From: Cyanophora paradoxa CCMP329
Taxonomy: Eukaryota; Plantae; Glaucophyta
DNA length: 64,000 nt
Reading direction: 5' to 3'
NCBI GenBank assembly: GCA_004431415.1
Contig: QPMI01000445.1
Span: forward strand, 1 to 64,000
Shown here: piece by piece, positions 8,101-50,700 of the stretch
How positions within the stretch are numbered: position 1 is the stretch's first letter
How the letters are laid out: each line of letters begins with the position of its first letter
Translations under genes and position numbers: made by a program
Notes under the pieces: model-generated
The model's input: only the letters and a program-made list of their open reading frames with translations
Database searches by the model: none
What the model was told of the DNA's origin: nothing

Positions 8101-8380
8101 TGTATGTGAGCCAGCGATATAATTCATTCATGGCTGTTCCATCTTCTGCCTCTGGTTCTATTTGCCTAAGCCTATCCAGTTCATCCAAGGTTTCAATTTT
8201 ATCATATAGGTTATTTGCTTTTCTGGTTAATCTGCTTAAAGTGGGTCTGCCCCTTGCAATTAAATCTATTTCCCGGTCATATTCAGCCTCTGTAATTTCA
8301 TGGGCTGCATAAAGTGTTCCCAGCAATCCCATGAGTTCCCATTTCTTCTCCCTTATGAGTTTGTTGGTAATTCGGGGCAT
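5136..8380 (-). CDS. Protein-primed family B DNA polymerase (N-terminal OTU-like protease motifs, C2H2 finger, EndoVII insert), one frameshift near 5447
   Basis: Polymerase motifs DANNLYG, KLMNNSIYGK and HDTDS. EndoVII-type CYLC...DHDHHTG...ACRNCN. DDSCF...GHY. Adding 1 nt restores TPGKYKNEMPG. Confidence 0.93.
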
Positions 8381-21900: not shown

Positions 21901-22214
21901 TTTCCAGTCAACTCAATGCATATTTTAATGGGAAAATCCAAGCAGGAACGTATGTTTACACTACTCCTTATCTTTGGGCAAATCCTGACCATAGGTTTAA
22001 CCTCACTATTAATTTCAACAGCAGCTTTGCTAACCCTCCTATTGTAACAACTGGTATACAACACAATGAGACAGCCTACTACTATCGAATGTATGTTAGG
22101 CTTAAACAAGTTTACAGTAGCTATTTCACTTGTGAGCTTGACATAGTTCCATTAAGTTCTTTTGACAGACCAGGATTTCCAGTTACAATTCATTACATTG
22201 CTGTCGCAATTTAA
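18954..22214 (+). CDS. Large phage-tail-fibre-like virion protein (1086 aa)
   Basis: Acidic EEYLPDG repeats; PPEDHxHDW and HTHTKAEITD repeats; FSGxYNDLxNKP motifs; lectin-like C-terminus (INFNSSFANPPIV). Confidence 0.8.
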   Translation: MSFNYPPNLETIQDDNASSTKHVNFDNIKVKGSVSIDHSSDNSSKTQSREHALSVNQTDPDKEEVSVAFSLGNVKANQVAEIKATRRRPRKLKTSGTHPDIPSRFDSGRLIFNVQDEQGKQNTALRIYNEGSTPKAEVPQVLQVGPIANTNQVSYTNDVYPKDITYDFARNEPFGFFTPKDVHQKKPSITINSSPSQPVAIHLHPDLVEMDRHLLPLYSNVKDLGIRTRQWRNIHGSNVYANGEKLVSEKTLREIIEHYGPNGPTVPFPIPFPNGPPDLTPKKQPGREYTATEDVAFGQHIVSWEQVRNKPIIEPRKQIDEQYLPPEIDILELDEYQFVPDEEEYLPDGFDPQEYEYDQYDPNEEEILPDGLDPQEFEYEQNYEPDEEYLPDGHDPPAVDYEQPYEPHEELLPDGFRPEIWEFFPDYEQINNKPAKYPPEDHNHDWDEILGKPQKYPPEDHRHDWGEIDGIPTEFPPSKHEHTWDEINDQPEFAKVEPLATLGVSLYQTCNIPERIFLNEHYVHVNGTLANSAMRGPLHIRTLPGSYNPPPEPGATIPNIFVSSYMEADIPTDTFRVPTDPATYQNYNSAIQVHVADVSSLDGSRPMIVFSRDKYSYIPIVGTANDNYGRAELAWIKTDYGGVLEANQRMAAKNIHNESISRVVTEDYLQAQNYIDETELNTIIAGIGIGVTGNYLPLTGGTIDGTVTACNFFVHTESNQTFPVVHPGGEYEIPDDPAIMPIKIDLPSDYVGRGELKTISFTGDYNDLINKPTAANLHPVAFSGSFLDLNNRSHTHTKAEITDFAHTHTKSQITDFAHFHTRADITNFAHTHVKSEILDLGNVAYVGHTHTKAEITDLGNVAYVGHTHTKAEITDFAHTHDWNTDIYNKPAIFSGNYNDLTNRPTLDPFTATTIRANNTMYVGSGQIVEPAGPMFEETWFFHNSQNYFDKTLLVRGNAYARNFYAMNPSNNATISRCITEADLSSQLNAYFNGKIQAGTYVYTTPYLWANPDHRFNLTINFNSSFANPPIVTTGIQHNETAYYYRMYVRLKQVYSSYFTCELDIVPLSSFDRPGFPVTIHYIAVAI

Positions 22215-30539: not shown

Positions 30540-32175
30540 CTAGAGGGCCTGGTCGAGGGTGCCGGCGGCGGCGTAGAGGAAGTAGCGGTCGCCGGGCAGC
30601 AGCACGAGGGCCGCGTCGTGCTCCCCGCCCAGCAGCCGGCCCCGCCGCGCCCCCCCGAACGAGACCGGCGCCTCCCGCGCGCCCCACGTCGAGACCGCCG
30701 CGAAGGGCACGCGGCCGGCGTTCACGAGGGCCCGCAGCGGGTCGATGTAGGCCGCGGGGAGCGCGGGGGGCACGGGCCCCCGCCAGCGGATGCAGTGGCC
30801 GGCGCCCCCCGCCGCCCGCCGCAGGCCGCACTCGTACCCCGACACGAACTCGTCCGGCCGGTCCTCCTCCCGCCCGCTCAGCTCCCTGTACCCCGGTCCG
30901 AGTCGGCGGGGGGAGGGGCGGCGGGGGCCGGCAGAAGGCTGCGCACCCGACGAGGCGGCAGGAGACGAGGCCGAGCCACTCGAAGAGGTCGCTGTGGAAC
31001 TGCGGAGCCGCCACCGGCCCGTCCCGCTCCTCGTACTCGGGGACCCCCGACCCCGCCCCCTCCCCCTCACCGCCCCGCCGCCGCTTCCCTGCGGCGGCGC
31101 CCGGGGGCCGGTCCGGGGGCGGGGGCCGGGGCGGCTCGGGCGGGGGCAGGGCGGGCAGCGCGACGTCGCTCAGAGTCTCCTCCGTCCGCTGCAGCTCCAC
31201 GCGCTCCGCCGCCACGCCCGCCGGGAACGGGCCCAGCTCCGCGCTCGCCCCCGCTGCCCGCCCGTCAGAGCGGGGGAGGGGGATGAATGCCGGCAGGGGG
31301 TACCGGCGTCGGTGCGGTAGAGGAGGAGGTCGACGGGGGAGGTGCGCTGCGGGGAGAGGCTCCACTGGACGCGCTCGTAGAGGTTCTTGCCCGGCGCGAA
31401 GGACGGCGCCGCCACGTCCACCTCCACGTCTGCGCCGCGCTCGCCTCGGCGGGGCGGGCGGGGGGCGGGGCCGGGCGGACCGAAGCGCTGGCCGCGGAGG
31501 GGCTTGAAGGGGGAGGGGCGGCCCTGCAGCCCGAGGGCCTCGTAGGCGTCCTTCTCCAGCGAGAGGTGCAGCGTCCCCGGCGGGTACACCGCCACCACGT
31601 TCCCGTGGTCGATCGCCCCCGCGCTCGAGAGCGCGTACGTCGACCCTGCGCGGCGCCTCGGCCGGCGGCCGGCGGCGGCGGGCGGCGGTGCCGCGCGGGC
31701 GGGGCGCGGCGCACCGCCGTCGCGGGAGGCGAGAGAGGCGAGGAAGGGAGGTCGGAGGAGGGTCGCGAGGTGCGCCCGCACGCGGTAGTAGTAGTCTGTC
31801 CGCTGCGGCAGCCTGCCGCCGGCCCGCGTCGGCCGCCGCGCCGCGCCCGCGCCGCCGGCGAGCGCCGAGCGGTCGCACGCACCTCGAGAGAATGTCCGGG
31901 AGGCCCGGGTCGGAGAGCGTGCTCTGCAGCTGGGAGCGCAGGCAGGGAATGAAGACCTCGACCTGCGAGCGCGGCGAGGCGCGATCAGGTCGCGACGGAA
32001 CGCGCGTAGCTAGCGGGCGGGGTCCTTAGGAGCGTCGGACCTGCTCGAGGAAGTGGTGGCCGAGGATCGCATCCCGCGCCTTCGCCTTCGGGTGCGCGAA
32101 GGAGGATTCCCACACCTGCAGGCTCTTCGTCGGCAGCCACGCGTCCTTTCCGGACACGAGCTCCGGGTGCGGCAT
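30540..32175 (-). CDS. RPP40: RNase P/MRP subunit p40, multi-exon
   Basis: YALS..IDHGNVVAV..GTLHLSLEKDAYEALGLQG, LFEWLG, STWG..EAPVSF. Confidence 0.8.
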
Positions 32176-32354
32176 CTGCGACCTTGAGCTCGATGACTTG
32201 CTCTACCCCCCCTTCTTGGGTCGAAGCTCTTTTTGGCGGCGGGCCCCGCAGATGCAGCTGGTGCGTCTCACTGCTCTAGGCAAAACCCGTCCGATTCGCC
32301 AGTGACCACCGGCGCCGTCGATCGCAGGTCGATTGGGCGGTCGCCGCGCTCGCT

Positions 32355-34258
32355 ATGGGCGCATACGTGCGTTGACCGCCGTGCCGGCCGAGCGCGCTGC
32401 AAGCGACCGAGCTCACCGACAAGCCGCCCGCAGATCGCCCGGCGGCTGCGTGAAGGGGCCGGCGGCGGCCAAGCGGAGCGGGAGCTAGAGGCCGACGCTG
32501 GCGGTGCCGCGGCCGGCGCGGCGGCCCTCTCGGACGACGTGCTGCGGCTCGTCTTCGCGCACCTGTCGGACGACGCGCAGTCGCTCCTGGCCGCCTCGCA
32601 GGCCTGCCGCCGCTGGCGGGGCCTCCTGTCGCCCGAGGACGCGGCGTGGCGCGCGGCGCTGGGGCGGCAGTGGGGCGAGGCGGCGGCCGTGCACGCGGCG
32701 GAGGCCGAGGGCGGCGAGGGGCCGCTCGACCGCTCGTGGCGCACCGCCGTCGGCGGCGGCCCCGGCGGGACGGTGTGGAAGGCGCGGGCGCTGGCGCGGG
32801 GCCGGGCGCCGCACGCGCACCACGACGCCTTTCAGGCGGAGCTGGCGCGCGCCTGCGGCCGCCTCGCCGGCTTCCGCCTCCGCCTGCGCCTCGGGCCGGC
32901 CGCCGACGACGAGGGGCGGCCCGAGGACGGCTGCGAGGCCGACTGCGGGCCCGGCGCCTGGCGCGCCCACGCCGACTCCGTCTACGCCTCCTTCCCCCTC
33001 CCCGCGCCCTTCGTCCAGTCCCCCGCCTTCCGCTCCGGCGGCCTCCTCCGCGGCGCCCTGTACCCCCTCCCCGCGGGGGGCGCCCCCCTCCCGCCCGCGG
33101 CGGCCTTCTCGGCGCCGGTGTACCCCGGGGCGAGCACGGCGGAGCTGTGCCGCGGGGATTGCAGCGGGGCGCTGGTCGTCTCGGGCGATCGCGAGGCGGA
33201 GGCGGCAACGGTGCACCTGAGCGCCCACGGGCACCTCGTCCTGCGCGCCCTGCGCGGCGAGGCGCCCCCGCCCGCCGCGCCCCTCCCGCCCCTCTTCGGC
33301 GCGGCGGCCGCCGAGGACCTGGCCGAGGCGATCGCTGCGGGGCGGCCCGGGGACGCCGCCCCGCCGCCGCCGGCCGCGCCCGGCCCCGCTGCCTGCGCTG
33401 GTGGGAGGCCCCCTGGCCCCGCCCGGCGCCCCCGCCGCCGGCGAGCCGGCACCGCCGCCGGCCCCGGAGGAGAGCGAGGGGCCGCAGGAGGGCGGCCTCT
33501 TCGACCTGCTCGCGGCGCAGCTGGCGCGGGAGCGCGCGCGGCGCGCCTCGCCGCCCCGCGCCTCGCCGCCCGCGCCGCCGCCGTCTGGGGGTACACCCTC
33601 TACCTCGCGTTCCGGCCGGACTGCGGGGCGGCGGCGGCGGCCGGCGGGTGCGGCTGGGCGGCGGGCGGCTGGAGCGCGCGCCTCCGCCTCGCGGACGCGC
33701 TCTTCTCCTACGACCTCTCCTCCTACCTCGCCTGGCGGTGCGAAGTTCAAACTCGAAATCTTTCACCGCCGACGCGGGGGCAGGTTTGAGGTGCCGGCGG
33801 AGGATGCGCCGCGGGCGGGCGGGGCGGGCCCGCTGCGCTTCCCCTTCGGGTGGCACCTGCGGGACGCGACGCTGTACGGCGGCGGGGGCGAGCCGCTCCT
33901 CCTCTCCGCCAACGCCCCCGTCGTCGTCTCTGGCCCCGTGCGCCCCGCCCGTCCCGCCCCGCCCACCCGGCCGCCAATTCTTACAAGCGAGCAGCAGGGG
34001 CCGGGTGGGGCGCCGGTCTTCGCGGGGACCTTCTTCCTGCGGGTGGACGCCCCCGCCTCGGGCCCGCCGTCGGGGGCCGCCCCCGGGGCCTGGTGGGCCC
34101 GCACGGTGGCGGCGGTGCGCTACGAGTGGGACGCGGCGGCGGGGGCCGGCGCCGGGGCCCTCTGCCTCGAGCTCCGCGCCATGCCGGCCCTCGTCCACGC
34201 CCTCATCGCCCCGCCCGGGCCCCGCCCCCGCGAGCTCGACCCCGAGCTCGAGGCGTGA
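32355..34258 (+). CDS. F-box protein (C-terminus weakly FBXO15-like), multi-exon, start uncertain
   Basis: LSDDVLRLVFAHL..SLLAASQACRRWRGL F-box motif. Confidence 0.65.
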
Positions 34259-34327
34259 GCGGCGCGATCGCGATCGATGCAAGGTTTCAATGAAGCACTA
34301 GGACTAGTAGTGTACAGGGCGAGCGAA

Positions 34328-37300
34328 CTACCAGGCGGGAGCGGCTTGCCCCGCGGCGGGCCCCGGGGCGGGCGGGGGGAGGCCGAGGGTGCGGGCGCGG
34401 AGGGCGGAGAGGGCGCCGGCGAGGCGGGCGGCGACGCGGCGGGCGTCGGCGAGGGCGCAGTGGGGGAAGTCGGCCTTGGCGCGCCCCGGGGCCGCCTCGG
34501 CGCCCCGCTCCGCCGCCTCCTCCCGCGCCCGCCGCTCCGCCGCCACGCGCCGGTGGAACTCGCACCGGTCCTCCTCCCGCGCCGCCGGCCACGCGGGGAG
34601 CCTGCGCGCGCGCGTCTCGGGCCGGGGCCGGGGCGGTGCGGTCGGAGCGCGGGGCGGGGCGCGCACGAGTCGCGGGGTTGAGGCCGAGGAGGGCGCAGAG
34701 GGCGCCGAGGAGGGCGTCGGCGTCGACGAGGGGCGGGGCGCGCGCCTGCGGGCGCCCCGCGCGCCCCGCGAGGAACCGCAGCGCCTGGGCCTCCGTGCGG
34801 GGGTCCTTGGCGAGGAGCAGGCAGGCCCCCGGGGCGGGCGGGCGGGCGGCCGGCCAGCCCGAGGCGGCCGCCAGGCGCTCCCAGAGCTCCTCGGGGGCCG
34901 CCCCCCGCACGCCGGGCGGCAGCTCCTTGTAGGGGATCCCGTGCACCTGCCGCCCCGCCTGAGACAAGCACAAGGGGGGGGAGCTCGAAAGGGGTACACC
35001 TTCTTCCAGCGGTGGTTGGCGGAGTGGTGGGCCTCGGGGCTCTCGGGGAGCCAGGGCCCCGCGCAGAGCAGCGCGTGCTCCTCCGCCTCCGCCTCCGCCC
35101 GCACCGCCCCGCCCCCGCCCCCGCCCCAGGCGCGCAGGCGGAAGCGGGTGGCGCCGGCCTCGCAGGGGAAGGCGACGCGGAGGCCCCCCGGCCCCTCCGC
35201 CTCCCCCGCCGCCTCGAAGTCAAGGGCGAGCAGCGGGCCGGCCGCCACCAGCGCCGCGTCGGCCGCCGCCTCGTCCCGCGTCCGCACCGCCGCCGCGAGC
35301 ACCGTCGCGGCATCCTTGCACAGGTCCGCCGTCTCCTGCGCCGTCGCCTCGGGGATGGCCGGCGGCTCGGCGCGCACGAAGCCGGGCGCGGGGCGCCGCC
35401 GCTGCAGCTCGGCCGCCTCGCGCGCCGCCGCCTCGTCGCGCTCCTCCGCCTCCGCGAACGCCGCCGCCCCGCCGGCCGCCGCGCTGGCGGCGCCGCCGAT
35501 GCCGTAGCCGCGCTGGCGCCAGCCGGGGACGGGGTCGGCGAGGAAGGCGTCGAGCTCCTCCGGGGTGCGGGACGGGTCGAGGCGCCCGCCGTACTCCCGC
35601 GCGAGGCACTCGTGCACGAAGTACCCGAGCGGCGTCCACTGCAGGCCGCACGCGCAGCCGCCCGCACCCGCCCCCACCGAACCCGCCGGGGGCGGGTCGG
35701 GCTCGCAGAGCATGGCGGAGACGCCGGCGGCGGCGGCGAGGGCGTCGGCGAGCCAGTTGCGGTCGCGGTTCCACTCGAAGTCGCGCTTCGTCTCCGGCGC
35801 GAGCGCGGCGCGCAGCTCGTCGGCGGCGAGGCCCCCGAGGACTTGCGAGGCGTCGCGGAGGGGGCGCAGGAAGTCGAGATTCGCGTAGCGGGCGCGCACG
35901 ACGGTGGCGCGCGCCGCGGCCGTCTGGATGAGGTCGAGGGCGCCCGGGCCGGCGGCGGCGCCGGAGCGGAAGAAGGCGGCGTAGGAGTGGTACGCGACCG
36001 CGAGCTCGAGCGCCGCGTCGCCCACGAACGCCAGGCGGCCTGCGCGCAGAGGGTTTCGGCGAGGCGAGGCGAGCCGAGGCGAAGACGAGGCAAAGCAGGG
36101 GCGCACGGTTGTCGTAGGGGATCGCCGGGCGCCGCGCCTTCCGGAAGTGCGTCGCCGCCTGCGCGGGCGCCGCCGTCAGAGGCCGCGCGGGGCGGGGCGG
36201 GGCGGGGGCGGGCTGCGCGGACGGCGGTGAGGAGGCGTAGGGCGTCTTCGGGCGGCTGGCCCCCGAAGCAGAGGGCGCTCCAGAGCTCCCGCAGCACGCC
36301 GGCCTCCTCCGGCCTCAGCCACTCCGCCCCCGGCACCCGGTCTGCCCGCCGCGTCGGCCTCGGCTTCGGCCTCGGCCGGCGGGGGCGCGCGGCTGGGCGT
36401 GCGCGCGCACCGGCGCCGGTGGCGGCGAGGGCGGCGCGGAGCTGGCCGGGGGCGTCGAGGGCCTCGGGCAGGGGCCCCGCCTCGCGGCCCCGCAGGGCCA
36501 CCTCCAGCACGCGCCTCAGGGACGGGTCCAGGTCCTCCCGCCTGCGCCGGCGCGGCCGCCGCTCGCTCAGCGCGGGGGCGCGGCGCGGCGGCGGGCGGTC
36601 AAGGCGCGCCGGGAGGCGGGGCGGATGACGTAGCGGGCGGCGAAGGCGCGGCAGGCGGGCAGGCCCGAGTCAAGGTACAGCGCCCCTGCGCGCCGGCCGT
36701 CGGGCGCGGCGGGGAGGGCGGGCGGGGGGACGGGGGGCGGGGCGCGCCTGCGACGGCCTCGAGGGCGTCGGCGCGCATCGCCTGCGAGACGGCCTGCCGG
36801 TCCGCGCAGCGGAGGGCGCGGTCGAGCCCGAGGGCCTCCGCCGCCGCCGCCAGGCTCTCGTTCGAGACGCACTCCTGCGCGCACGCGCCGGCAACGTCAG
36901 CCGTCGCTCCGCTTCGCTTCGCCTGGCTGCGGGGGACCTCGGTGGCGGTGTGGAGGGCGAGGGGAGTGGCGTCGGCGGGGCGGGTGTGGTCGACGAGGGT
37001 GCGGCGGACGGCGTAGCGGAGTACGCGGTCGCCCAGGAACTCGAGCGCCTCCCCGCCCTGCTCGCCCCCGCACGCCGAGCTGTGCGTCAGGCTCGCCTCC
37101 AGCGCCCCCGGGTCCCTCAGCCGCAGGCCCAGCTCGCCCTCGAAGGCGGCGAGCACGCCGGCGAGCGCCGCGGCGCGCTCCATCTCGCGGCGGGCGCGCA
37201 GGAGGGCGGCCCCGAGGGCGTGCATCTGGGCGGTGAGGCCCGTCGGCACCCGCAGCGTCTCCGGCGCGTACACCGCCGCGTTCGCGCCCCCGCTCTCCGA

Positions 37301-37966
37301 GTAGGAGAGCGCCACGGGCTGGTTGGGGTCCTGCCGGGCCGGGCGTCAGCGCGAGGCGCTGGGCGGGGCGGGGGGGAGAAGGGCGCGCCTCGAGGACGAC
37401 GTTGCGGGGCTCCTCGGCGAGGTACTCGGCGAGGGTCACGCGGGGGCGCACTCGGGCGCGCCCGGCCGCCTTGCGGGGGTCGAGGGCCTGGACGGGCACG
37501 AGCTGCGCGCCCTCCTCGGCGCGCGTGCGGTACGTCGTCACGGCCATCGAGTCCTCCAGCATCTCCCGGAGGCGCGCGTAGCCGCGGCCCCGGCCCTCGC
37601 GCAGCGCCGCGAGCACCTCCTCGGGCCCGTACGAGTGGGCGCGCGCCGCCGCGAGGAGCGCCGCCGCGTCCTCGTCGGCGGCCTGGCGCCCGTCGGGCAG
37701 CGCGAAGCGCGGCCACAGGAAGCTCTGCCCGCGGCGCGTCGACGGAGGGGGGGCGGAGGAAGGGGCGGCGGGGCGGGGGCTGCGCACGTCGGCGATGAGG
37801 GCGCGGCCGTCGTCGTCCTTGGTGAGGGCGGCCGGCCAGCGCGGCATCGCCCCGCGCTCCGAGGGCGCGCAGGCCTCCCCGAAGAGGTTGTTGAAGTCCG
37901 CCAGCGCCGCCGCCGCCTCCTCGTCGAACTCCTGCGCGCGCGGCGCCGGGCGGTCTTAGAGGGGGA

Positions 37967-37998
<32 letters not shown>

Positions 37999-40900
37999 CG
38001 GCGCCTGGGGGCCGAGGTACTCGACGCGGATGTCGACTTCGAGGGGCCCGGCGGGCCCGCACAGGCTCCCCTTCAGCGCCGTCGCGAAGCGCAGCGGCCG
38101 CCGCCGCGTGTACAGGTCGTACCTGCCGCGGCGGCGCGTCAGGGAGGAAGGAGAGAGGACGCGGGCGGGCGGGGCGGGACGGGCCCGTCGAAGGCGGAGG
38201 CCTGGAGGTACTCTCGCGGGCGGCGCGGAAGGGGCGGGTCGACGGTCACGCGGTGCCGGTGCAGCGTACCCCGCCGCCCCGCCCCCGCGGCGCTCGAGGG
38301 GGCCGACGAGGCCGCCATCGGCGCCGCGACCGGGGGCGCCGGTACCGGGGCCGGGATCGCCGCCGCGGCCGGAACGAACGCTGGGGCTGGGGATGGGGCC
38401 GGGAATGGAGCCGCGGCTGGAACGAACGCTGGGGCTGGGGCCGGGATCGGCGCCGCGGCCGGAACGAACGCTGGGGCCGGGGCCGGGATCGGCGCCGCGG
38501 CTGGAACGAACGCTGGGGCTGGGGCCGGGATCGGCGCCGCGGCCGGAACGAACGCTAGGGCTGGGGCCGGGATCGGCGGGGCCGGGAGGGTGCGGCTCGG
38601 CCCGCCTGTCGTCATTGCAGCAGCTGCAGCTGCCGCAGCGGCGGCGGCGGCAGAGGCGGCCTGCGCGGCGGCTGGGGAGTAGCGAGGAAGGGGCGCCAGG
38701 GCGGGCGGCGGGCGCGGGGCGGCGGAGCCGTCGGCCAGCAGCGCGCTTAGAAGCTCCTCCTCCTCCGCGGGCGGGGCCGGCGCGGGGGCCGGCCGGGCCG
38801 CGCCGGGGCCGGGCCCAGGGTGCCCCTGCGGTGGCGGCCCGAAGAAGCTGAATGCCGGGGTGGCTTGCGCGGGCTGCGCGAGGGGCGCAGGCGCCCCCCA
38901 CAGGGGCGCCGAGGAGCCGGCGGGCGGGAGAGCCGTCAGGGGAGCCGGCGCGGAGCTGGCCGGTGGCGAGGGCCGGCCGGCGGGAGTAGACAATACAGCG
39001 GCCAGGGCGGCCGGGTTCGGAGGGGGGTACGCCGGGAGCGCCGGGGGGCGGTACGGCGCGGCCGGGCGGGGTGCGGGGGGCGCGTAGGGCCGCGGCTGCT
39101 GCGTCGACGCCGACGGCGGCGACGAGGCGGGGACCGGAGCGAGGGCGGGGATGGGGAGCGGGACAGAGGGCGGCGCATAGGGCAGGGGAGCCGCAGCCGA
39201 TGGGGCGGCTGGGGGCGGATAGACGAAGGGGACGGCAGGCGCGACGGGCCCCGGGGCGTGCGACGGCGCGATGGGATGGATTGGGAAGTGCCCAGCGGGA
39301 GGGTGCGCCGCTGCCGGGGGTAGAGGGTACGCCGCGGGAGGGGGAGGCGCGACGTAGGCAGGCGGAGGGGAGGGAACGAGGGCGGGGATCGGGAGGGGTA
39401 CGGCCGGAGCGGCGGGGTACGAGGGCGCCGCCGGCCAGGAGGCCGCTTGCTGAGGGACGAAAGGGGCGGGATAGGGGGCCGGGGCAGGGGCGGCGGGGGC
39501 GGGCGAAGGGGCGGGGACCGGTGCAGCGTGGGTGGTCCACGCGGCGGAGTACGCGGCTGGTGGTGGCCGCGGGGCCGCTTGCTGGGCAGGGTAAATGGCG
39601 GGAGGGGGGGCAGGTGCAGGGGCGGCGGGGGCGGGCGGCGGGGCGGGAGCCGGAGGGGCGGGGGCGCTCCGGCCGCCGGCGGCCGGGTCGCCGCTCTGAA
39701 CAAAACGCTCATCGGGCGCGCTGCCCTGCGGCGGGCCCGGCGGGTCCGCAGCCTCCGAGCGCGGCTCTTTGATCTCGCGGAAGTTCCTCTGCGGGGCGCC
39801 CCGGGCCGTCAGCTCGGGCGTGGTGCCAAAACCGTCTTTCAGGGGCCGGGCGCACGATCCTGAGGACGGGGCGGGGCCCGTCCTCCTCGTCGCTCGCGGC
39901 GCCCAAGTCCAGCGCCGCCGGCGCGCTCGAGGATGCGTCCGGTTCGGAGGGGTCCGGGGCGCCGCCCCACGCCTCCAGCATCCTGGGCCCCGCCTGCGGC
40001 CGCCGCTGCGGGCGCGGGCCGGGGCGGCAGCGGCCGTCGAGCGCCGCGAAGATGTCCTTCTCCGCCTCCTCCGCCTCCTCGGAGCGCGGGGAGGACTCGC
40101 CGGAGGACGGGTCGAAGAGGATGGCGGGGCCGTCGGGGTCGTACCCCATCCGCCGCTTCCGCTCTATCTGCTTCCGCCGCTTCTGCTCGATGTCCTCGCT
40201 CACCGGCACCGCCCGCCCTGCTCGCGGGATCCGTGAGGGCGCGGCGGGGCGGGGGGTCGGCGGGGAGGGGCGGGGGGGCACCGCCCAGGTCGGGCCCGAG
40301 GCCGACCTTGGGGGTCCAGCCGTGGCTCTCGAGGTGGCGGCGGGCGAGGGCGTGGGCGTCCCGCGGGGCCGGCGGCGCCTCCAGCTCCCGCTCCAGAGCC
40401 GCTAGCCCGTCTCGCGGCCGAGGCACCGGCCGCAGCCGCGCCAGCCAAGAGGTTGGCTTCGGGGCCGTTGGCGGAGCGAGGCCCGTTGCAGCCGCGTCCA
40501 CAGCAGGCGGAGAGAGCGGGGGAAGAGCAGCGTTTGGAGGAGGCAGGGGCGGAGCGGCGGGCGGAGCGGGCGCCGCTGCAGGGGCCTCGATGGCGTCCGG
40601 CGGGGGAAGAGGCCGGGTCCACGCGAGGGCCGCTGGCTGCGATAGAGCGAAAGCTGGGGCCGTCGTGAGCCCGATCGAAGGCGCCGACGAAGCGGAGTCG
40701 TGGGCGGCCGTCCAGGCGGCGGTAAGCGGACGGGGCGGGCCGGACGAGGAGGAAGAGGAGGGGGTGGAGGAGGCGCCCTCCGCGCCGGGCGACGGGTGCG
40801 GGCCGGGATCGCGGGGCTCGAGGTGGAGCCGTTGGGGCGCCTCCGCCTCGAAGAGCATGGCCGGCCAGCTCCCCTCCGACCCGCTCGAGCCGCCCTCTGC

Positions 40901-43900
40901 GCCGCCCTCGCCCTCGCCGCCGGCGTCGTCTTCGCCCTCCGCGGAGGGCTCCCACCTCGCGGCGCCCCCCTCCAGCCCGGAGCCGCCCTCCTCCTCCTCC
41001 TCCTCGTCCTCCTCCTCCTCGAGCGCCCGCCCTCCGTCGGCGTTGTCGGACTCCCCGCCGGCCTCCGGGGTCTCCCCCGCCGCCGTCTCGGCCCCGGCCC
41101 CGCCCCCCGCGAGCAGGCGGGCCAGGCTCTCCTGCAGCATCCGCCTCGCCTCCTCCGCCTCCTCCTCCTCCGCCTCCCGCGCCGCCGCCACCTCCACCTC
41201 CTCCTTGTCCTCCTCGGGGCCGCCGCGGGCGCCCTGGCCGCCGACCCTCAACTTCTCCTCCTCGTCCTCCTCGCCGTCGCGCCCTCCTTCGCCGCCGCCG
41301 CCGACGCCGTCCGACCCGCCACCGGCGCCGTCTGGCGTGCCGCCGCGCTCGGAGCCGCCCTGCCAGCCGCTCTCCGAGCTGGTGCTGCCCTCCGTCTCAC
41401 CATCGCGAGCCGATTCGCCGGCTTGCTCCGGCCCGCCGCCGGCGTCGTCATCGCGCGGGGGCTCCGGGGCGGCATTCGCTGCTTCGGGGGCGGCGGTCGA
41501 GGCGAGCAAGTCGGGCCCCGCCGGGCTTGCGGCCCTCCCGGCTGCAGGGGCGGCCTCCTCCGTGACGGGGGCAGCGGGAGGCTGTTCTGGCGGGCAGGCC
41601 GCGGCGCCGATGTCGTCGCGGGTGTCAGGAGCGCCGCCGGCATCGGCCGCGCCGTCGGCGGCCTCCTCGCGCAAGGCCGGCGCCGGCCCCCGAGCTCCGC
41701 CGCCGGCGCCTCGCGGAGGGCCGCCGCCGCCGCCGCCGCCTCTGCGGCACGGGCCACGGCTTCGGCGAGCGCCTCCTCCACAGCCGCCTCCACCTCCTCC
41801 GGCGAGGGGCCCGGCCCCGCGCCCGCCGACCCCGCCTCCCGCGCGGCTTCTTCTCCGCCGGCGCTGCGCTGAGCGGAGGCATCGGCCGCGAGCTCCTCCT
41901 CGATCTGATCGGCCTCGCCGGCCGCCCCCGCGGGCGCCGGCGCGGCCCGAGGCCGGCGCCCCCCCCGCCGCACCAGCGGCTCCTCCTCCTCGTTCTCCTC
42001 CTCGGGCGGCGGCTCCGGGAGCCCGACGCCAGCGCCGCTCACGCCACCCGCGCCGAAGTCCCGCGCGCGGCGGCTCGGCAGCCCAACGCCGGCGCCGCTC
42101 TCGCCGGCTCCGTCCAAATCGCCGTTGGCGTCAAAGAAGCTACCGCCAGGGCCTCCGTCGGGCTCGGCGCCGCCCGCCTCCTCCTCCTCGTCGCCCTCGC
42201 CCTCGCCGTCGTCGAGGAGGCCGTAGTCCTCGTCGTCCTCGGGGATGCCGGCCTCGCGCAGGAAGGCGAGCACCTCCTCCCGCTGCACCCGCCGCAGCGC
42301 CCGCATCATCTCCCGCCGCCTCGCCACCTCCTCCTCCATCTGCCCCGCCCGCCCCGTCGGCCCCCGCCGGCGCACTCGCGGCCGGCCGGCCGGCCCGCGG
42401 GGCGCGCGCACCTCGATGCTCTCGTGGATGGCGAGGACGCGGTCCCGCTCCTCGGCCTCCTGGGCGCTCGCCTTGAGCGTCTCCCTCAGCTGCCGCTCCT
42501 CCTCCTCCGCCGCCCGCCGCTCCTCCTCCGCCGCCAGCGCCAGCTCCTTCGACTCCTCGAGGATCTGCTGCAGCTCCTCCTCTGTCGGCACCCGCCAATC
42601 GTCCTGCGCCGGCGCCTGCGCCTGCGCCGCCGCCGCCCTCGCCCGCGCCTTCTTCGGCCTGCGGGCGCGCATCGGGGCGGGAAGGCCGGAGCGCCGGCGC
42701 CCGCCGGGGACGCACAGGGGGTCCACGGGCAGTGCGGAGAACGCCGAGGGCACCCCGAGCTCCTCGATGCCCCGGTTCGGCCTCAAGCGCCACTGCGCGC
42801 GGCGTGAGCTGCACGGGGCGGCGCGGCGGCGGCGGCGTCGGCGACGGGGCGCACGTCTTCGACGCGGCCGGCGGCGCGGTGGGGCGGGGCCAGGCTCGGG
42901 GAGGGGAAGGGGGCGGCGGGGTCGGGGTCGGGCTCGCGGGCGCGGGCGGCGTCGGCAGCGTCCTCGAGGAGGAGGAGCTCGGAGAGGCAGGTGACCTCCT
43001 TGGACTGCTCCAGGGCGAGCCGCAGCTCCTCCTCCTCCTCGGCGTCCCGCCTCGCCTCCTTCAGCGACTGCCGCAGCGCCTTCGCGAGCTGCGCGTCCCC
43101 GTCGCCCCCCGGCGCCACCCGCCGCCGCCTCGCCTCCGCCTCCGCCGTCCTCCGGCTCTCCACCTCCGCCGCCTTCAGCGCGAGCTCGATCGCGTCGACC
43201 TCGCCCCGGCGCGGGGCGGCGGCGCCCGCCGCCGGGCCCTGCCGCGCGGTCCCGGCTGTCGACGGCGGGCGCCCGCGGGCGGGGCCGGCGGGGGCGCTGC
43301 GCTCGAGCGGGGCGGTGGGGCGGCGCCCCTCTCCCACATGGGCGGCGGATTGGGCGCCGCGCTCGGTCGCACCGGAGCGGAGGAGCGGCCGGCGGCGGGG
43401 GCGCCCGGCAGAGCGGCGGCGGAGGACGAGGAGGGGAGATTGGGGGCAGCCGGAGGGTACGCGGGAGCCGGCGCTCGGGGGGCGGCGGGCTGGTAGAAAG
43501 AGGGCGGGGATTGCTGTGCAGGGTGTGTGGAGGGCTGTGATGCGCCGTGGACGGGCTGCTGTGGGACCGCCGCGGCGGCTGGCTGGGCTGGGGCGGAAGA
43601 GGCGGCATAGTGCGGCGCGGCGGTGCCAGAAGCCAGAGGGACCTGAGCCGGGGGAGGGGCGGCCGCGGAATGCGCAGGGTACGAGGCCGGCGGGGCTGCC
43701 GCCGGCCACGCAGAGGGCGAGGGCGACGAGCCGGGCGCGGGGCCGGGCGAGGGGCCGGGCGCGGGGCGCTGTGGGGGAGCGACGGGGCCCCACGCGGGGA
43801 GGGAAGGCGGCTGCGGCACGTGCACGGGCGGCGACTGGGCCGCGGGGCGTGCGGAGGCGGCTCCGGCGAGGGCGGCGGCGGCGGCCGGGAGCCCGAGGGC

Positions 43901-46900
43901 CCCGCCGCCGGTGCCGCGGAGGACGGGCCGGCCTCCTGCTCGGAGCGCCGGGCCGAGCCCGGCGGGTCGCGGAAGTCGGGGCCGTTCATGTAGAAGGGCC
44001 GCTCGTCGGGGGAGCCCCTCGGCGGCCCCGGCCGCCGCGAAGCCTGCGAAGGCTGCCTGCCCCAGCCCGAGTGGGGCCCGTTCTGCGCTGCACGGGTGAG
44101 CTGGGCCGCGAGTCTGGCGCGCGCCACAAGCGGGTGAATCTGGCGCGCACCATAAGCTCTGGATCTGGCCGGATGCAGGGCAAGCTCGAGGGGGGTGCAG
44201 GGTGCGCCCGGTCGGGTACGTTCCCTCGCGCCTTGGCGGGCTGCAAGCGGACGGGGATCAGCCACAAGGGCCGCGACCGGCAGCGGGGCGAGTGGGGCGC
44301 ACGTCCGCGACGCGGACGACGAGCTCGTGCGTGGCGGTGCAGCCGGACTGGACCACCTTCCCCCAGTACGCGTGCACCGAGATGAGATCCACTTTCTCAA
44401 ATTCTGGATCCAGCACGACGTCGTCTGGACTGGCGGTTGGAGGAGGAGAAGCGGGAATGGGGGCGGGGGGCGAGGGTCTGCACCGATGTTCTGCTGGGTC
44501 GCGTCCTCCTTCTTCAGCTCGCCCCCGCTCTGAGCTGCCTTCCTCACCTCGATGTCCAGGTCGGGCCACCTGCCGAGAGACACGCGAGTGCCCGTCAGGG
44601 AGAGGACCCGAACGCAACTCAGCCGGAGAGGGGCACCAGGCGATGAGGGGCTCGAGCCTGGAGGCAGGGGCCGGCACCGCAGACGTGCGAGATCAGAAGC
44701 AGCGCGTTGCAGGAAAGCAGAAAGAAGCGCACCCTAGGTCACGAAACATTTCGATGGACTCGACGTAGTGCTCAGTCACCTGCGTGTTCTGCCGCGGGCG
44801 TCACATGTATACAGGGGGCGGTGCAGCCACGCGGGGCCCGGGGCCGTGATCGCACGGTGATGGAGCCCGCATCGGGAAAGATGACGAGGCGTGTCGGGCG
44901 CGGGTTCAGGCTGCTCAAGATGGCGGCGATGTGCGGCCGGGAAGACTTGAAGTGGCCGCCGCAGCCGCTGCGAGGGGTTCAGACAGGCGGCTCGCCGCAG
45001 ATGCCTTTCTCGCGCACATTCCGGCACCAATCATCGGAATACCGAAGTAAACACACGTGATGAGGCTCTTGAGGCCGCCCTCGCTGGCCCCGATCCACCT
45101 GCGAGTCCATCGGATCGGTTCGAGAGACTGAAAATTAAATGAGAGGCAGGGGCGGGCCCTTCGTATCCGGGGCGCGTCTGCGTGGGCTGCCAGAAGAACG
45201 CCGGGGTGCAGAGTTCGCCGCCGACCTCCACCAGGTAGCTCGGGACCTCGTCCTTGTTGCCGCACGTGTAGTATTTGCTTCGCGTCTTCACGAACGTCCA
45301 GGGCTGTGCGGTTGCTTCAGGGCGAGGAGCTGGCGCGCACGCATAGCGCAGAGGCTCACCTTGATCATCCCACCGAGGATCCTGCCCCCTACGTCGAGGA
45401 CAGGGATGAACAGACCCTGCAGCGTTGACTGAGATAGGACAGGCGGGAGGCCGGGAGCCTAGCAAACAAGGGTGCGCGTACCTCCCAGTGGGAGCCGCGG
45501 AGACCAAGCACCTCGCCCTCGGCAGCGCCAGCATTCTCGGGGTCCAAGGGAATGTAGGCCGTGCCGGTGGCCCTTGGAAATTGGGGACGCTCATGATCAC
45601 TATCCCCTACAGAAACAGAAATCCAGGCCGGGGGCGTGCGCACGGGTTTGTCGAGAAGCCCGGCAGCTTTGCAAGATCGGCAGCAGCGCGCGAGCCCGAG
45701 GGTTCATGATCAGCGCGACTCGCAGAGGCCGCGTCCAAGTTCGCCACCAGCTGGGCGAGCTTGTCTTGGGTCAACTGCGGCCGCCAGATTCAATTATCCG
45801 ACCGAGCACTTGGAAGAGCGGGGCCCACCTCCCTGCTAAGCCAAGGCCTGATCGAGTCGGAGAACCTGACTGTCCTCTCCAGAAGCCGCCGGGTGAGACC
45901 GCGCGCCTTGAGCAAATCGAATTCAGCCCCAGGCACGCTGTATCTGGCGACGCTAATTCTGGCAGTCATCGCCCGGAGGACAGTTCGGAACTGTGCACCA
46001 CGCCATATGCATCCCAGGGTCACAAGGTTCCAGAGAGGCGCGCAAGGGATTCGGGTGGGTACAGGCGGGGCGCACGAGCTCGTCTCGGCGTTCGAGGGGG
46101 AGGATGTCTGAAGCGCGGACCCTCCTCAGAGGCTGGGCGAGGGTCTTCGTCACGCCGACGTGCACCGCCCGTATCCAGTCCCTTGTTCTTCGGATCTCGT
46201 CGGGGAAGTCCTCTGAAGGAACCAGATGAGCGGCGAGGCGGGATTCTTGAGCGAGGAAAAGCGATACGGACCCTGGTTCTCGCAGTCTTCAAAAGCCTCG
46301 ACAGCTTCTCTGATGGAACTTCGCATGCCAGCCTCGGACGGAAGAGAGAATTCTGCAAAGAACAAGTTTAACAAGGGACAGAATTGAAGTTGAAATCAAA
46401 GTCTCGCACGCTTGGGGTCAGCAACGCGGCGACCTTGAATTCGGCCTCCGGTTTGGATACCCATACAGCTGACGCATCCGTCGTACCACTTTCCGAACAC
46501 AGAGAGCTCTGCTCCGGCGTCAGATGTCTGGACGGACCTGGCGCGGCGCGATATACGCCTGGGCGCGCGCGCCGAAGCCGCGTCCGCGCTGGCAGCGGCG
46601 CTGCGGAGCTGGGGCTGCGGAGCTGGGGATTGAGGCGCACCGATTTCAACGACGATACCGAGAGTGGCATGCATCTTCTGTTTCGTACTGTTGCAGAAGG
46701 CGGACTTGATGTTGTCGTTCGTGATGAAGCGAACGCGCCGGATGCGCGGCGCGGGCTTCCCCCAGTTGTGGAAAACATCGATGCGGCTGAGCTGGAGGTG
46801 ACGATCGAGCTCGCCACACTGTCGACGTCGACGGCGCGTCATGCACGATCAGATTTCAGACCGTTCCTTGCTAATATAAGGAGCTTGAGGATGCGGCATG

Positions 46901-47259
46901 GAGCCGCACCTTGGTTGAACACGAGCCTGACAGGTCCTTTTTGTGCTGTCTGATGACGAGGTCCTTGAGCTCGCCCTGCGCTCGGTCCAGTCAGCGCGCT
47001 GGGGATGGATCTGCAAGCGGCGGCTGGCAGAAGAGCCTGGAATCGCTGCTCTAATCTCGTGCGAAACCTCCGGGCGTGTCGTACGCCGCGCTGCGCGGCC
47101 CGGCCCCCGCGGCCGTGCCCGTGCGCTCCTCATTCGCCGCGGAAGCGAAGCCGCTTCGCGCACCTCCCACAGCTTCACAAGCGCGTTCTTGATACGCTCA
47201 CTGTATCTCCAGTTCTCCGACGGCGACAGCGCGCCTTCGATGCGCTTGCGGGGCGCCAT
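34328..47259 (-). CDS. Dicer-like protein: UIMs, G-patch, platform/PAZ, RNase IIIa, degenerate RNase IIIb, Maelstrom/DEDDh-like exonuclease; 5' extent beyond ~44600 uncertain
   Basis: RNase IIIa: SLTHSS..EALEFLGD..ADALEA..ALYLDSG. RNase IIIb: ATH..YDNRRLAFVGD..LADALAA. PAZ-like: VTTY..TLAEY..DPNQP..APETL. Exonuclease: LDFE..PCE..HGIP..CEFH..PHCALAD. I checked the exon joins by hand between ~34.3 and ~40.3 kb. Confidence 0.75.
38345..38580 (-). repeat. ~5 x 42-bp coding minisatellite (IPAPAPAFVPAAAP)
   Basis: Read directly within the Pro/Ala-rich Dicer linker. Confidence 0.85.
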
Positions 47260-47779
47260 TCGTCTGCTATGATGACTGCTGCTAGTTTTCTGACGAGCCT
47301 GCGCCGCATTCTCCTCCAGGCGAATGTTGCTGGTGCCGCCAGAGCCCTATACCCCAACGATCTCGTTCGCCTCCGTACCCAGTAGTTCGCTGATCAAGTC
47401 GGAGCGCGGCCGGCTCTTCGACGATGTCGAAGAAGATCAAGGCCGGCCCCGGCGGGGTCGGCGAGATGCTGGACCTAAACAAAACGGAGCTCAACAGGTG
47501 GGGCTAACCGTCACTCCGCCCTCGACGCGACGCCGGCGAAGTCTGACCGCGTTGTAGTCTGCTTACGAAGTGGGACCGCTCGGTCAAGTCTCCTCTTTGC
47601 ACGACGCTCAAGGTTGGCATGGATAAGGACATCAAGGACTTCGGTTCGTGGCGCCCGGCGCCCCGCTGAGCAACACGCACCGCTGACGGCCGCCCGCGCT
47701 TCAACTCACAGATTGCTGCGGTAATGGTTCGTTGACGCCCGTCCGAGCTTCCGCACTTGCGCCGCTAACCGCCAGTTCG

Positions 47780-50700
47780 GCCAGGCGAGCTCAACGGGGA
47801 CGAGGAGGTGCCCGCCTGCGCGGCCCGGCGTTGCGTGTATCTGACCCTTCGTTCAGTGTGATCTGGGAGGGACGATGGTGCCTGGCGGCCTGAATGGCAG
47901 AGGCGAGTGGTCCGCGGCGATTCACTGGAGTACGAGCTGACGGGTCGCACGCAACACAGGGCAAAGCTGGGATATGCAGTGCACTGCCAAGTGCATGATC
48001 AAGCCTTTCTGCGGCGACGGCATCCGCGGGCCCAAGAACGTCGGCCACGACTGCGAGCAGTGCGTGTCGCGCCGCGCTTAGCTATCGCCCTGGGCTGGGC
48101 GCGGCTTGGAGCGAGCGGCGCGCAGGTGCGACGATGGGCCCAGCGGCAACGGGTTCGGCTTCTTCCAGAAGTGCGACAGCCTGTGCAACCTCAAGAACTA
48201 TTGTGGAGGTGCCGCGCGCCCCGCGCGCCCGGCGGCGGGGCCGGCGGCGGGCTCACGCGCCGCCGGCAGACGGCAAGATCGACTGGGGCAACGAGCCGAA
48301 CGCCGAGCGCATCGTCTACCGCAACTACAAGGAGAAGCCGGTCTTCGCGAACGGCTTCGACCACATCCAGAACAACAACAGTGCGCCCGCCCGCCCGCCC
48401 CGCGGGCCCCCGGGCCGAGCCGCGGCGGCAGAGGTGAACGTCGTGATCGAGAACGGCGTGGAGCGGCGCGAGCAGTGTGAGCGGCGCCCCCGCCCCCCGC
48501 CCTCCGGCCCCCGCTGCTCCTCGTCTCACCCGACGCGCGCGCAGGCGACGACGGTGCGCCCGCCGCCGGCCCGAGGAAGACCCGCGTCCGCGGGAGCCGC
48601 GGGCCGTGCCCGCTTAGCTAAGGGACCGCAGGCACCGCGAACGGCGGCATGGACAAGTGCACGCAGGAGTGCAGTGCGCCCGCTCGCCCCGCGCCCTGCC
48701 CCCCCCGATCGCGCTGACTTTCGTGCCGCAGAGGTTCCCGTCTGCGGAGGTGCACCCCGCCGGCTCTGCCGACGGCGCGGCCCGCGGCCCCGCGCCTGAC
48801 CGTGCCCCGCAGACAACCTGGTGAACCGCTCCGCCGAGCAGTGCGGTGCGCGCGCCCCGGCCGCGGCTCTTCTTCGGGGCGCCGACGGTGCGCCCCAGAC
48901 GACGGGAAGGCCAACGGGGCGATGGACAAGTGCACGGCGACCTGCCTGAAGCCCGTCTGCGGGTGCGCGCCGCCCCGCCGCTTCATTTTCCCCCCTCCAG
49001 CCCGCATCCAACCCGCGATCCGCAGCGATCAGATCGTCAACCGCTCCTCCGAGCAGTGTAAGGGCCTTCCCACGGGCGCCTCCGGGCTGCACGGCGCGCC
49101 GACGCCCGCCCGCCCTTCCCGCCGCAGGCGACGAGGGGGGCCTCAACGGGCAGATGGACCGGTGCGACGACCCGCCCCGCCGCCCCGCGCCCCGCCGCCG
49201 GCCTCACGGGCGGCCCGCAGGTGCACGAAGGACACGTGCCAGCTGCCCGTCTGCGGGTGCGCCCCGTCCCCCAAAGCGCGCTCGCGCTCGAGGCCGGCGG
49301 CTTACCCGCTCTCTCCCAGCGACGGCCTCGTTAACAAGTCGTTCGACGACGCACGCGGCCCCGCGGAGGAGTGCGGTGCGCTCGTCTCTTCCATACCCCC
49401 CTACCCCTCCTACCCCCCCCCTCCTCCCCCCCCCCACACCGCGTTGCCTCCCTCCACTTCCGTCGCCTATCCTCTTCAGATCCTCTTTCCCTACGCCTCT
49501 GCCTCCCTCCACTTCCTCCTCTTCTCCCCCCCCTCCTCCTCCTCCTCCTCCCCCCCCCCCCCCCCCCTCCTTTCCCCCGCCCTCGGTCACTCGGCCCGTC
49601 CTCACCGCTCACCCATCCCACCCCCGCCCATCCTTCCGCTTCTCCACTGCCTCTCGAGTCGCTGAAACCTGGCCGGCTCTCGCAGACGACGGCGGGATGA
49701 ACGGGCTGGCGAACAAGTGCACGGCGGCCTGCAAGGTCCCCGTCTGCGGGTGCGCCCCCCGTATCCGAGAGCGTCAAGCTCCCCTTGCTGATCCGGTGCA
49801 TGCAGCGACGGCCTCGTCAACCGCACAGTCCCTGACAACCGCGGCCCGGCGGAGCAATGCGGTGAGCTGCGCCGCGGCCCGACGAGTCGGGCGCTGGCTG
49901 GCCGCCGAGCTCGCGCCGCAGACGCGGGGCGCGCCAACGGGTCCATGGACACCTGCACGTCCTCCTGCCAGAACCCCGTCTGCGGGTGCGCCCCATGCGC
50001 GACTCCGCCGCCCCGCCACACTCACGTGCCCGCCCTCTCGTCAGCGATGGCCTCGTCAACCAGAAGTTCGAAGTCTGGTCAGCCTCCCGCGCCCCTTGCT
50101 CGCCCCTGCCCGCCGTGCTAATCCGCCCTGCAGCGACGACGGGTCGCTGAACGGGGAGCGCGACCGCTGCGTCGCGACGACCTGCCAGGTGCGGGGAGGG
50201 GCCCGCCGCGCGACCGCCTCGGCCCTCCTGTGACGCGCGCCGAGCAGCCCCCTCGCTGCGGCGACGGCCTGACCAACGCCACCGGTGCGCTGCGCCCGCC
50301 CCGGGCCGTCGCCCTCGAATCTTGACCCCCGGAGCCAGGCGAGGAGTGCGACGAGGGCGACAAGCTCAACGGGCAGAAGGACCACTGCACGGCCACCTGC
50401 AAGAAGCCCGTCTGCGGGTGCGCGCCGGCGTGTCGCTTTCCCTCCGGAAGGCGGCGCCACTGACCCGGTCCCGGTCCCGCAGCGACCAGCTCGTCAACCG
50501 CGCCGGGGAGCAGGTGCGGCGGGTCTTCGTCTTTGTCGCCCGCTTTCTTGAGTGACGCCGCCCCGCCTGCCTCCAGTGCGACGACGGCAACCAGAACGGC
50601 CAGATGGACAAGTGCATGATGAACACCTGCCAGGTGCGCCGGCCTTGCGGCGGGTCGCCGGCACCTCATGCTCACGCCCCGTGCAGCTGCCCACCTGCGG

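Follow-up and report, generated by a model that had tools for sequence, protein, structure and literature searches.

A Dicer-like RNase III pair fused to a predicted Maelstrom-type exonuclease in a GC-rich eukaryote

Here we report that a Dicer-like RNase III pair and a Maelstrom (MAEL)-type domain are fused in one chain, encoded on the minus strand of a 64-kb window, the whole stretch of DNA analysed, from a GC-rich eukaryote. The residues of its two RNase III domains predict that this Dicer-MAEL protein nicks one strand of dsRNA instead of making two cuts. According to our exon model and to RNA contigs, the gene is spliced and transcribed. Contigs of four runs were compared with the window; X1, X4 and X7, which represent two studies, were taken as RNA since introns are missing from their contigs, no listed run being recorded as RNA, and a contig of the fourth run, X12, crosses introns unspliced. 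In the direction of transcription, the gene and its parts are as follows.

44151..47259, minus strand: probable 5' part of about 620 aa in many short exons, with an ATG at 47259 (X1 contig, exon model).
39856..44082, minus strand: low-complexity middle in open frame, Pro-rich, with an acidic tract and UIM-like and G-patch-like motifs.
38212..39788, minus strand: long exon rich in Pro and Ala that contains a 30-nt tandem repeat and stays open in the frame of the Dicer part (contig pieces 38527-39359).
37161..38270, minus strand: probable platform, PAZ and connector helix, with VTTY, TLAEYL, DPNQPV and YAPE, tentatively assigned to these elements by position and consensus.
36610..37160, minus strand: intact RNase IIIa on three exons, with EALEFLGD (E 37042, D 37030) and DALEA (D 36769, E 36760) (Pfam, PDB, profile).
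35601..36260, minus strand: RNase IIIb, predicted inactive (Pfam, profile, alignment columns).
35261..35600, minus strand: Ala/Glu-rich linker of about 110 aa at the canonical dsRBD site (Pfam; GC3 0.98).
35000..35260, minus strand: first third of the MAEL domain, in the RNase IIIb exon, with D 35221, E 35215, the zinc E of PCE 35161 and H 35077.
34666..34946, minus strand: middle MAEL exon with VHGI (H 34943) and Exo II KDPRTE (D 34805, E 34793) (compared with PMC2628886 supplement 1).
34602..34665, minus strand: intron, reading TG..AG in the window (contig-length arithmetic).
34328..34601, minus strand: last exon with zinc C 34564, H 34555 and C 34459, catalytic H 34462 and D 34447, and the stop codon (motifs, X1 contig).

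First, the claim of the preliminary description that one gene runs from the RNase III pair into the exonuclease is borne out by a single stop-free exon of 1,040 nt (36039-35000, minus strand), which encodes RNase IIIb together with the opening third of the exonuclease, and by a spliced X1 contig, which joins RNase IIIa to the last exon in a single transcript. Contigs of X1, X4 and X7 each hold 36937-37329 followed by 36038 down to 35137, 35145 and 35191, with identical offsets. Among the contig pieces listed, the last exon (34601-34200) is reached by X1 only, and this piece (34200-34601) differs from the window in 0 letters. The X1 contig continues beyond the stop codon into the convergent neighbour. 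Our 13-exon model matches the X1 offsets 855, 1753, 2654 and 3073 exactly and, at one further junction, differs by a single base (1246 against 1247) that can be assigned to either exon. For the junction near 34600-34665, either a GC donor or a 1-nt correction had been proposed, and it is the correction that holds. The anchors bracketing this junction lie 418 nt apart in the X1 contig, and the models predict 417 nt for a plain GT donor, 418 nt for an exon end at 34666, 421 nt for a GC donor and 429 nt for another acceptor; the latter two were rejected on these lengths. Because only the exon end at 34666 gives 418 nt and keeps the frame, the window is most likely missing one base at this donor, as judged from contig-length arithmetic rather than junction reads. 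Three further 1-nt omissions in the window, at 41686, 43271 and 43843, are shown by contigs.

Second, two RNase III domains are present in one chain, but two intact catalytic centres are not. RNase IIIa matches Pfam PF00636 with an E of 7.3e-09 and our local profile (built from 23 of 30 fetched loci) with 64.5 bits, and has PDB matches to Dicer and RNase III. The corresponding values for RNase IIIb are an E of 0.032 and 17.7-18.2 bits. In its first motif, RLAFVGD, Ala at 36031 replaces Glu and D 36019 is kept, and in the second, LADALAA, D 35746 is kept and Ala at 35737 replaces Glu; this second motif lies outside the local-profile alignment and was placed by global alignment. All 23 bacterial RNase III rows have Glu in both of these columns, and the Ala codons show 0 differing letters in contigs of three runs. 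Since RNase IIIa is intact and RNase IIIb carries Ala at both Glu positions, single-strand nicking is predicted, and of the "cut-and-trim" Dicer-type enzyme proposed earlier the RNase III pair and the exonuclease stand, whereas complete dicing does not. By motif position, we infer that the two Ala map to E1705 and E1813 of human DICER1, whose IIIb hotspot mutants likewise have an intact RNase IIIa and are expected to cut one arm; in DICER1, the 3p arm is cut by IIIa and the 5p arm by IIIb, and the E1813G mutant retains 3p but impairs 5p miRNA activity (PMC6695490). The DICER1 changes arise by mutation in tumours and affect a canonical Dicer, whereas here the substitutions are the natural state and are accompanied by an exonuclease.

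Searches of split exon pieces gave no confirming Pfam or PDB match for the probable platform and PAZ, Pfam found no dsRBD in 35000-36037, where RNase III was the sole match, and no helicase was found by Pfam in 13 upstream frames, where exons are short and the 5' model is incomplete. In having a tandem RNase III core after a probable PAZ and no detected helicase or C-terminal dsRBD, the protein resembles Giardia intestinalis Dicer, a minimal platform-PAZ-connector-RNase IIIa-IIIb enzyme (PMC10328071) that lacks both; neither a helicase nor a dsRBD is therefore required of a Dicer-like enzyme. Unlike Giardia Dicer, the protein described here has lost two catalytic Glu from RNase IIIb, continues into a MAEL exonuclease and probably carries a very long N-terminal extension.

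Third, the C-terminal domain is an intact-looking, predicted exonuclease whose residues follow the protist Maelstrom pattern. All motifs quoted in the preliminary description were found on the minus strand, namely LLALDFE (L 35224), FPCEAG (35170), HSANH, VHGIP (34946), AKDPRTE (K 34808), RCEFH (34567) and PHCALADA (H 34462), followed by the stop codon TAG at 34330-34328. The published alignment of Entamoeba MAEL and trypanosome RIF4 (PMC2628886 supplement 1) was matched motif by motif, and by eye against it the zinc set EHHCHC / ECHC is present in order (E 35161, H 35077, H 34943, C 34564, H 34555, C 34459). The catalytic DEDHD set is present as well, with D, E, H and D identical and E at Exo II, a position that is conservative or ambiguous, with E in one alignment and D four residues earlier in another. 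Retention of the zinc and catalytic residues, as claimed before, thus stands except for a clean D at Exo II. The ordered residue pattern, which was written after both sides had been seen, recurred in 0 of 20,000 and 0 of 50,000 shuffles. In an alignment with 25 DEDDh proteins, 11 of the 12 conserved columns were filled, whereas 200 shuffles reached 9 at best and seven other windows 5-7, which indirectly supports an RNase H-like DEDD fold; an iterative alignment gave 9 identical columns of 12, and a local DEDDh profile scored 1.5 bits on the domain, a value equalled or exceeded by 9 of 1000 shuffles. Pfam Maelstrom (PF13017) did not match the unspliced queries, which were single-exon pieces and a frame with two thirds of the domain, and in a seed search for MAEL its cut-off was passed in 0 of 301 bacterial genomes. 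Single-sequence AlphaFold models were too uncertain to use, with a pLDDT of 49 for the unspliced frame, with no Foldseek match, and of 43 for a second model, with generic matches only in fold searches.

The nearest analogues of this domain come from protists. Trypanosoma brucei RIF4 has DxE, PxE, CxxH and HCALxDA in the same order and acts in RNAi, a setting that we count as common ground with the Dicer-MAEL protein (PMC3359990, PMC2628886 supplement 1). This enzyme depends on Mg and on a free 3' end, acts preferentially on duplex RNA and converts duplex siRNA to the single-stranded form (PMC3359990). RIF4 is, in contrast, a protein of its own (490 aa) that works downstream of Dicer, whereas the domain described here is fused to an RNase III pair and has E at Exo II. 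Similarly, Entamoeba histolytica EhMael combines DEDD and ECHC in one domain, is near-identical in DFE, VHGI, RCE[YF]H and HCAL.DAR, and is an active exoribonuclease (PMC4408791), but it stands alone and no sequence search connected the two. Because trypanosome RIF4 and Entamoeba MAEL handle RNA either in siRNA-type pathways or more generally, the connection with a piRNA-type pathway suggested earlier finds no support. The DEDDh residues and ECHC zinc site are also shared by the C-terminal exonuclease of arenavirus NP, a sister group of MAEL (PMC7968707), which is, unlike the Dicer-MAEL protein, viral and serves immune evasion.

The range 34328..38200 given in the preliminary description holds the fusion but leaves out the probable 5' part of a gene that is likely about threefold that length: its start probably lies some 9 kb upstream of that stretch, for a total of about 3,500 aa. 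After filling the three contig-supported 1-nt omissions with N, an open frame of 1,850 aa extends from 44082 to 38212, and contigs break at either end of the 38212..39788 exon. Gaps between contigs lie near 38470-38527, 39360-39640 and 42900-42935. Within the middle region lie four UIM-like motifs at about 42470-43090 (Pfam UIM E 0.032, below the cut-off) and, by eye only, a G-patch-like motif at about 40150-40350. In one X7 contig, about 42962 is directly followed by about 42637, a join that fits no canonical intron and is possibly an artefact. The X1 contig holds 1,861 nt upstream of 44082, in which ten exons were modelled in frame. Toprim/DUF3854-like motifs at about 44400-45420 are only partly canonical in EG..K and D.D; a 52-sequence profile gave a weak 3.9 bits with 0 of 1000 shuffles as high, and a 3-sequence profile was equalled by 115 of 1000 shuffles.

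We believe, at about even chances, that the protein is a nick-and-trim enzyme of small-RNA production. A hairpin or duplex would be gripped at its 3' end by the probable PAZ, and RNase IIIa would cut the PAZ-held strand one small-RNA length in, with RNase IIIb, like the DICER1 IIIb hotspot mutants, unable to cut the other strand. The tethered 3'-5' exonuclease could then load onto the 3'-OH created by the nick and digest the loop and, in part or in full, the partner arm, thereby replacing the second cut and, with a RIF4-like outcome, leaving a single-stranded guide to be taken up by an Argonaute. This scheme would account for both the dead RNase IIIb and the fused exonuclease, and it fits hairpins better than long dsRNA.

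An unlikely but credible alternative is that another Dicer or a second chain makes duplex siRNAs, which the Dicer-MAEL protein would bind and strip of the passenger strand through MAEL at Argonaute loading. This is the job done by RIF4, and the terminal HCALADA agrees with the RIF4 and Entamoeba rows; however, the score of RNase IIIa and its full set of four acidic residues suggest that cutting is retained. We consider it improbable that the protein destroys dsRNA with no small-RNA output, with RNase IIIa nicking foreign dsRNA and the exonuclease degrading it in the manner of arenavirus NP. Such a role would be in line with the common ECHC zinc site of NP, the structural sister of MAEL (PMC7968707), with the 3'-OH entry offered by a single-strand nick and with a Polinton-like element within the same window, but the probable PAZ and connector imply measured cuts from an end, which destruction would not need, an argument that is weak because PAZ is unconfirmed. 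Very unlikely, in our view, is a MAEL domain that merely binds RNA in place of a dsRBD, as in animal Maelstrom, leaving the protein only a nickase: the domain occupies the usual dsRBD place, has Gly/Ala-rich insertions and E at Exo II, and Bombyx MAEL is inactive and binds ssRNA, yet the active-site D, E, H and D are all retained, unlike in animal MAEL. Finally, an artefact of chance motifs, assembly chimera or two merged genes, to which the 1-nt errors, the X1 read-through and the last exon seen in one of four runs (among the pieces listed) might point, is extremely improbable given the exon shared by RNase IIIb and the MAEL start, splice offsets concordant in three runs and two studies, the shuffle results for the post hoc pattern and a GC3 of 0.97-0.99 across all five gene segments measured, linker included.

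The fusion rests on one gene in one organism so far. No homologue emerged from a word-based protein search with in-frame queries (997-2845 aa and 312-996 aa proteins) or from metagenome contigs, no match from an in-frame PDB search or from prokaryote genomes searched with the RNase IIIa exon, and no usable match from an Atlas search (recognition 2323); each of these is a weak negative, given a eukaryotic query that is spliced and of low complexity. Conservation of the IIIb loss and of the fusion therefore cannot be shown. Matches to TAL effectors, a SECIS-binding protein and beta-lactamases were attributed to chance. An RNase III-MAEL fusion had no earlier description in the literature searched, which left out one key review.

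Animal MAEL is nuclease-dead, having lost the DEDD residues, and both protist examples with activity occur as separate proteins. The catalytic work that Maelstrom originally did is still to be settled; here, active-type MAEL is physically joined by nature to a Dicer core and thereby to dsRNA processing, which brings that work within reach of one recombinant protein. Loss of the RNase IIIb Glu together with a fused exonuclease suggests that an exonuclease can stand in for one Dicer cut, in a natural parallel to the tumour mutants of DICER1 IIIb. Distinctly doubtful, but of wider consequence, is the idea of a self-contained small-RNA factory of about 3,500 residues, in which Toprim primase-like strand synthesis or priming would be followed by an RNase III nick at a measured distance and a MAEL-finished single-stranded guide. 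If true, small RNAs would be made without a helicase or two-strand dicing, and the protein would show the role of catalytic Maelstrom before animals disabled it.

First, we found that a pair of RNase III domains and a C-terminal Maelstrom (MAEL)-type domain are encoded in one gene. The part of the window that carries this minus-strand Dicer-like gene has a GC content of 76-81% and many introns, and its 3' part fits a 13-exon model that starts at 39788 and ends with the stop codon 34330-34328. The 12 modelled introns are 53-89 nt long, with GT donors in seven cases, GC in four and, as the window reads, TG in one; GC-AG introns are unusually common here (4/12; 36747, 36609, 37388 and 38004). GC3 was 0.97-0.99 in all five gene segments measured. 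A single exon, 36039-35000, runs from the second RNase III domain (IIIb) through a linker into the C-terminal domain, of which it encodes the first third, so the fusion proposed in the preliminary description is independent of any splice guess. It is borne out by contigs from three of the four sequencing runs compared (X1, X4 and X7, from two studies), which contain the exon of the first RNase III domain (IIIa) and run from 36038 into the start of the exonuclease with the same offsets. We took these runs to be RNA because their contigs skip introns, the label being otherwise a guess; the contig of the fourth run, X12, reads through introns unspliced. The model gives back the offsets of the 3,810-nt X1 contig, which, among the pieces listed, also includes the last exon and passes the stop into a convergent neighbour, leaving the upstream junctions unaffected. 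This neighbour is an F-box-like gene (32197-34258, plus strand) at the 3' side; the contig extends at least to 34200, within its last coding stretch, and the 3' ends of the two genes may therefore overlap.

One junction had been flagged as needing either a GC donor or a 1-nt correction. In the X1 contig, the anchors 35137 and 34601 lie 418 nt apart, whereas a plain GT donor, a GC donor and an alternative acceptor predict 417, 421 and 429 nt and were rejected. Since only an exon end at 34666 yields 418 nt and an open frame, this length arithmetic makes it most likely that the window lacks one base at the 34666 donor, which favours the correction over the GC donor. Compared with the contigs, the window also has single-base omissions at 41686, 43271 and 43843, upstream in the gene, each of which breaks the reading frame.

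Second, motifs and alignment suggest that the C-terminal domain is very likely of MAEL type. All motifs quoted previously are present in the 13-exon model and were compared by eye, in their order along the domain, with the alignment of MAEL proteins published by Zhang et al. (2008; PMC2628886, supplement 1, in part):

LDFE, against Entamoeba FDFE
FPCEAG, against vertebrate LPCEIG
HALLCAGPWLPE, against C. elegans HAIVGPWMPE
VHGI, against Entamoeba VHGI
LLLAKD, against LLVLKD
RCEFH, against RCEYH
HCALADAR, against HCALSDAR and trypanosome HCALKDA

As the preliminary description held, the MAEL-like residues are kept: the zinc set EHHCHC is complete (6/6), as are the catalytic D, E, H and D, with E at the Exo II position in the MAEL-based alignment. 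An ordered pattern from the protist rows matches the model but no shuffled version of the 1,030-aa Dicer part (0/20,000) or of the C-terminal domain (0/50,000), and a looser pattern gave 0/20,000. These counts overstate the case because the pattern was composed with both sides in view. Against an independent set of bacterial DEDDh proteins (25/25 retrieved), the domain fills 11/12 conserved columns versus at most nine in 200 shuffles (two at nine); seven other windows gave 5-7 and the reversed domain 6. Iterative alignment gave 9/12 identical columns, with E at the Exo II column. The local DEDDh profile scored only 1.5 bits, equalled by 9/1000 shuffles, Pfam Maelstrom matched none of the single-exon pieces searched, and single-sequence fold predictions were unusable.

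Third, the RNase III pair is present but does not amount to a complete Dicer. With a local RNase III profile built from 23 of the 30 bacterial loci retrieved, we obtained 64.5 bits for IIIa, in which E, D, D and E are kept, and 18.2 bits for IIIb, where the match was confined to the first half. The IIIb motifs placed by global alignment are RLAFVGD and LADALAA, and both have Ala where 23/23 bacterial rows have Glu, a feature missed earlier; the contigs of three runs have no differing letters over these codons, which excludes an assembly error. By motif position, the two Ala would be counterparts of E1705 and E1813, which together with D1709 and D1810 are the metal-binding residues of human DICER1 IIIb; in DICER1, cleavage of the 3p arm falls to IIIa and that of the 5p arm to IIIb, and E1813G keeps 3p activity while impairing 5p activity (PMC6695490, in part). 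With Ala at both Glu sites, the protein is predicted to cut one strand. A Dicer has two intact RNase III centres and this protein, at IIIb, does not, hence the name Dicer-like. Before IIIa lie motifs resembling those of PAZ and the connector helix. Pfam and PDB searches of exon pieces supported neither. PAZ is frequently missed in sequence searches (PMC10328071, in part).

The gene is probably much longer, about 3,500 aa in total. Once the three omissions supported by contigs are filled with N, a frame of 1,850 aa is open between 44082 and the first Dicer intron. A contig has a further 1,861 nt upstream of 44082, a length compatible with exons reaching up to an ATG at 47259 (ten modelled in frame, the remainder roughly by hand). 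This upstream region, whose middle is of low complexity, contains:

within the 1,850-aa frame, minus strand: Pro-rich stretches
42470-43090, minus strand: four UIM-like motifs/helices (Pfam UIM E 0.032, under cut-off)
within the 1,850-aa frame, minus strand: acidic tract
40150-40350, minus strand: G-patch-like motif, by eye
44400-45420, minus strand: motifs of Toprim/DUF3854 type, in the probable 5' part of the gene

Because the contigs are interrupted at three repeat-rich places, we infer a single transcript from the open frame; alternatively, the gene may start within the Pro-rich exon. One X7 contig skips ~42637-42962; the jump occurs in a short shared sequence and has no canonical splice sites, and is either an artefact or an odd splice. 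On the 5' part, a 3-sequence DUF3854 profile did not stand out from shuffled sequences (115/1000 as high); a profile of 52 sequences (3 plasmid and, of 59 retrieved, 49 viral) gave a weak match of 3.9 bits (0/1000 as high). Pfam detected no helicase in the 13 upstream reading frames scanned.

Elsewhere in the window, a Polinton/virophage-like block of ~40% GC with long open frames occupies about 2000-28000:

4123-4764: rve integrase, under cut-off
5264-8380: protein-primed DNA polymerase B
9029-11628: DUF5906 + PriCT-2 primase/helicase
13612-14394: A32 ATPase
17354-18910: patatin
18954-22214: tail-repeat protein

The MAEL terminal motif was found in none of the six frames of this block. An Rpp40-like RNase P/MRP subunit gene lies at 31170-32009 (minus strand; Pfam 4.4e-21), and a plus-strand gene at ~47400-53000 has, by eye, many very short, repeated Cys/Gly/Asn-rich exons.

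Finally, the fusion with a MAEL-type domain is upheld and a two-centre Dicer is not. The literature searched, including the available parts of PMC2628886, PMC10328071 and PMC7827160, yielded no account of an RNase III protein fused to MAEL; Burroughs et al. (2014) and four PMC2628886 supplements lie outside this coverage and could bear on novelty. The MAEL partner domains in Zhang et al. are HMG, HDAC_interact and SR-25-like (PMC2628886, in part). In-frame searches of protein, PDB, Atlas and metagenome contigs returned no homologues, a weak negative. We would liken the protein to a helicase-less Dicer core and RIF4, the Trypanosoma brucei MAEL protein, joined in one chain. Our best reading, held with evenly balanced confidence, is that it may nick and trim. 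The support is drawn from similar enzymes: in the presence of Mg or Mn, ssRNA is degraded by the Entamoeba MAEL that carries both motifs (PMC4408791, in part), and RIF4 prefers duplex RNA, requires a free 3' end and releases single strands (PMC3359990, in part). It is unlikely, though conceivable, that the protein acts after another Dicer and removes the passenger strand in the manner of RIF4. Slightly less probable is destruction of dsRNA in the manner of arenavirus NP, the structural sister of MAEL (PMC7968707, in part). That the MAEL domain, with its catalytic residues, is a non-catalytic binding module we consider improbable, and an artefact, given the shared exon, very improbable indeed. 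In the nick-and-trim reading, the probable PAZ would hold a 3' end, IIIa would nick the strand so held, and the tethered exonuclease would start at the new 3'-OH and work its way back along the loop and the partner arm, such that trimming would stand in for the missing second cut.
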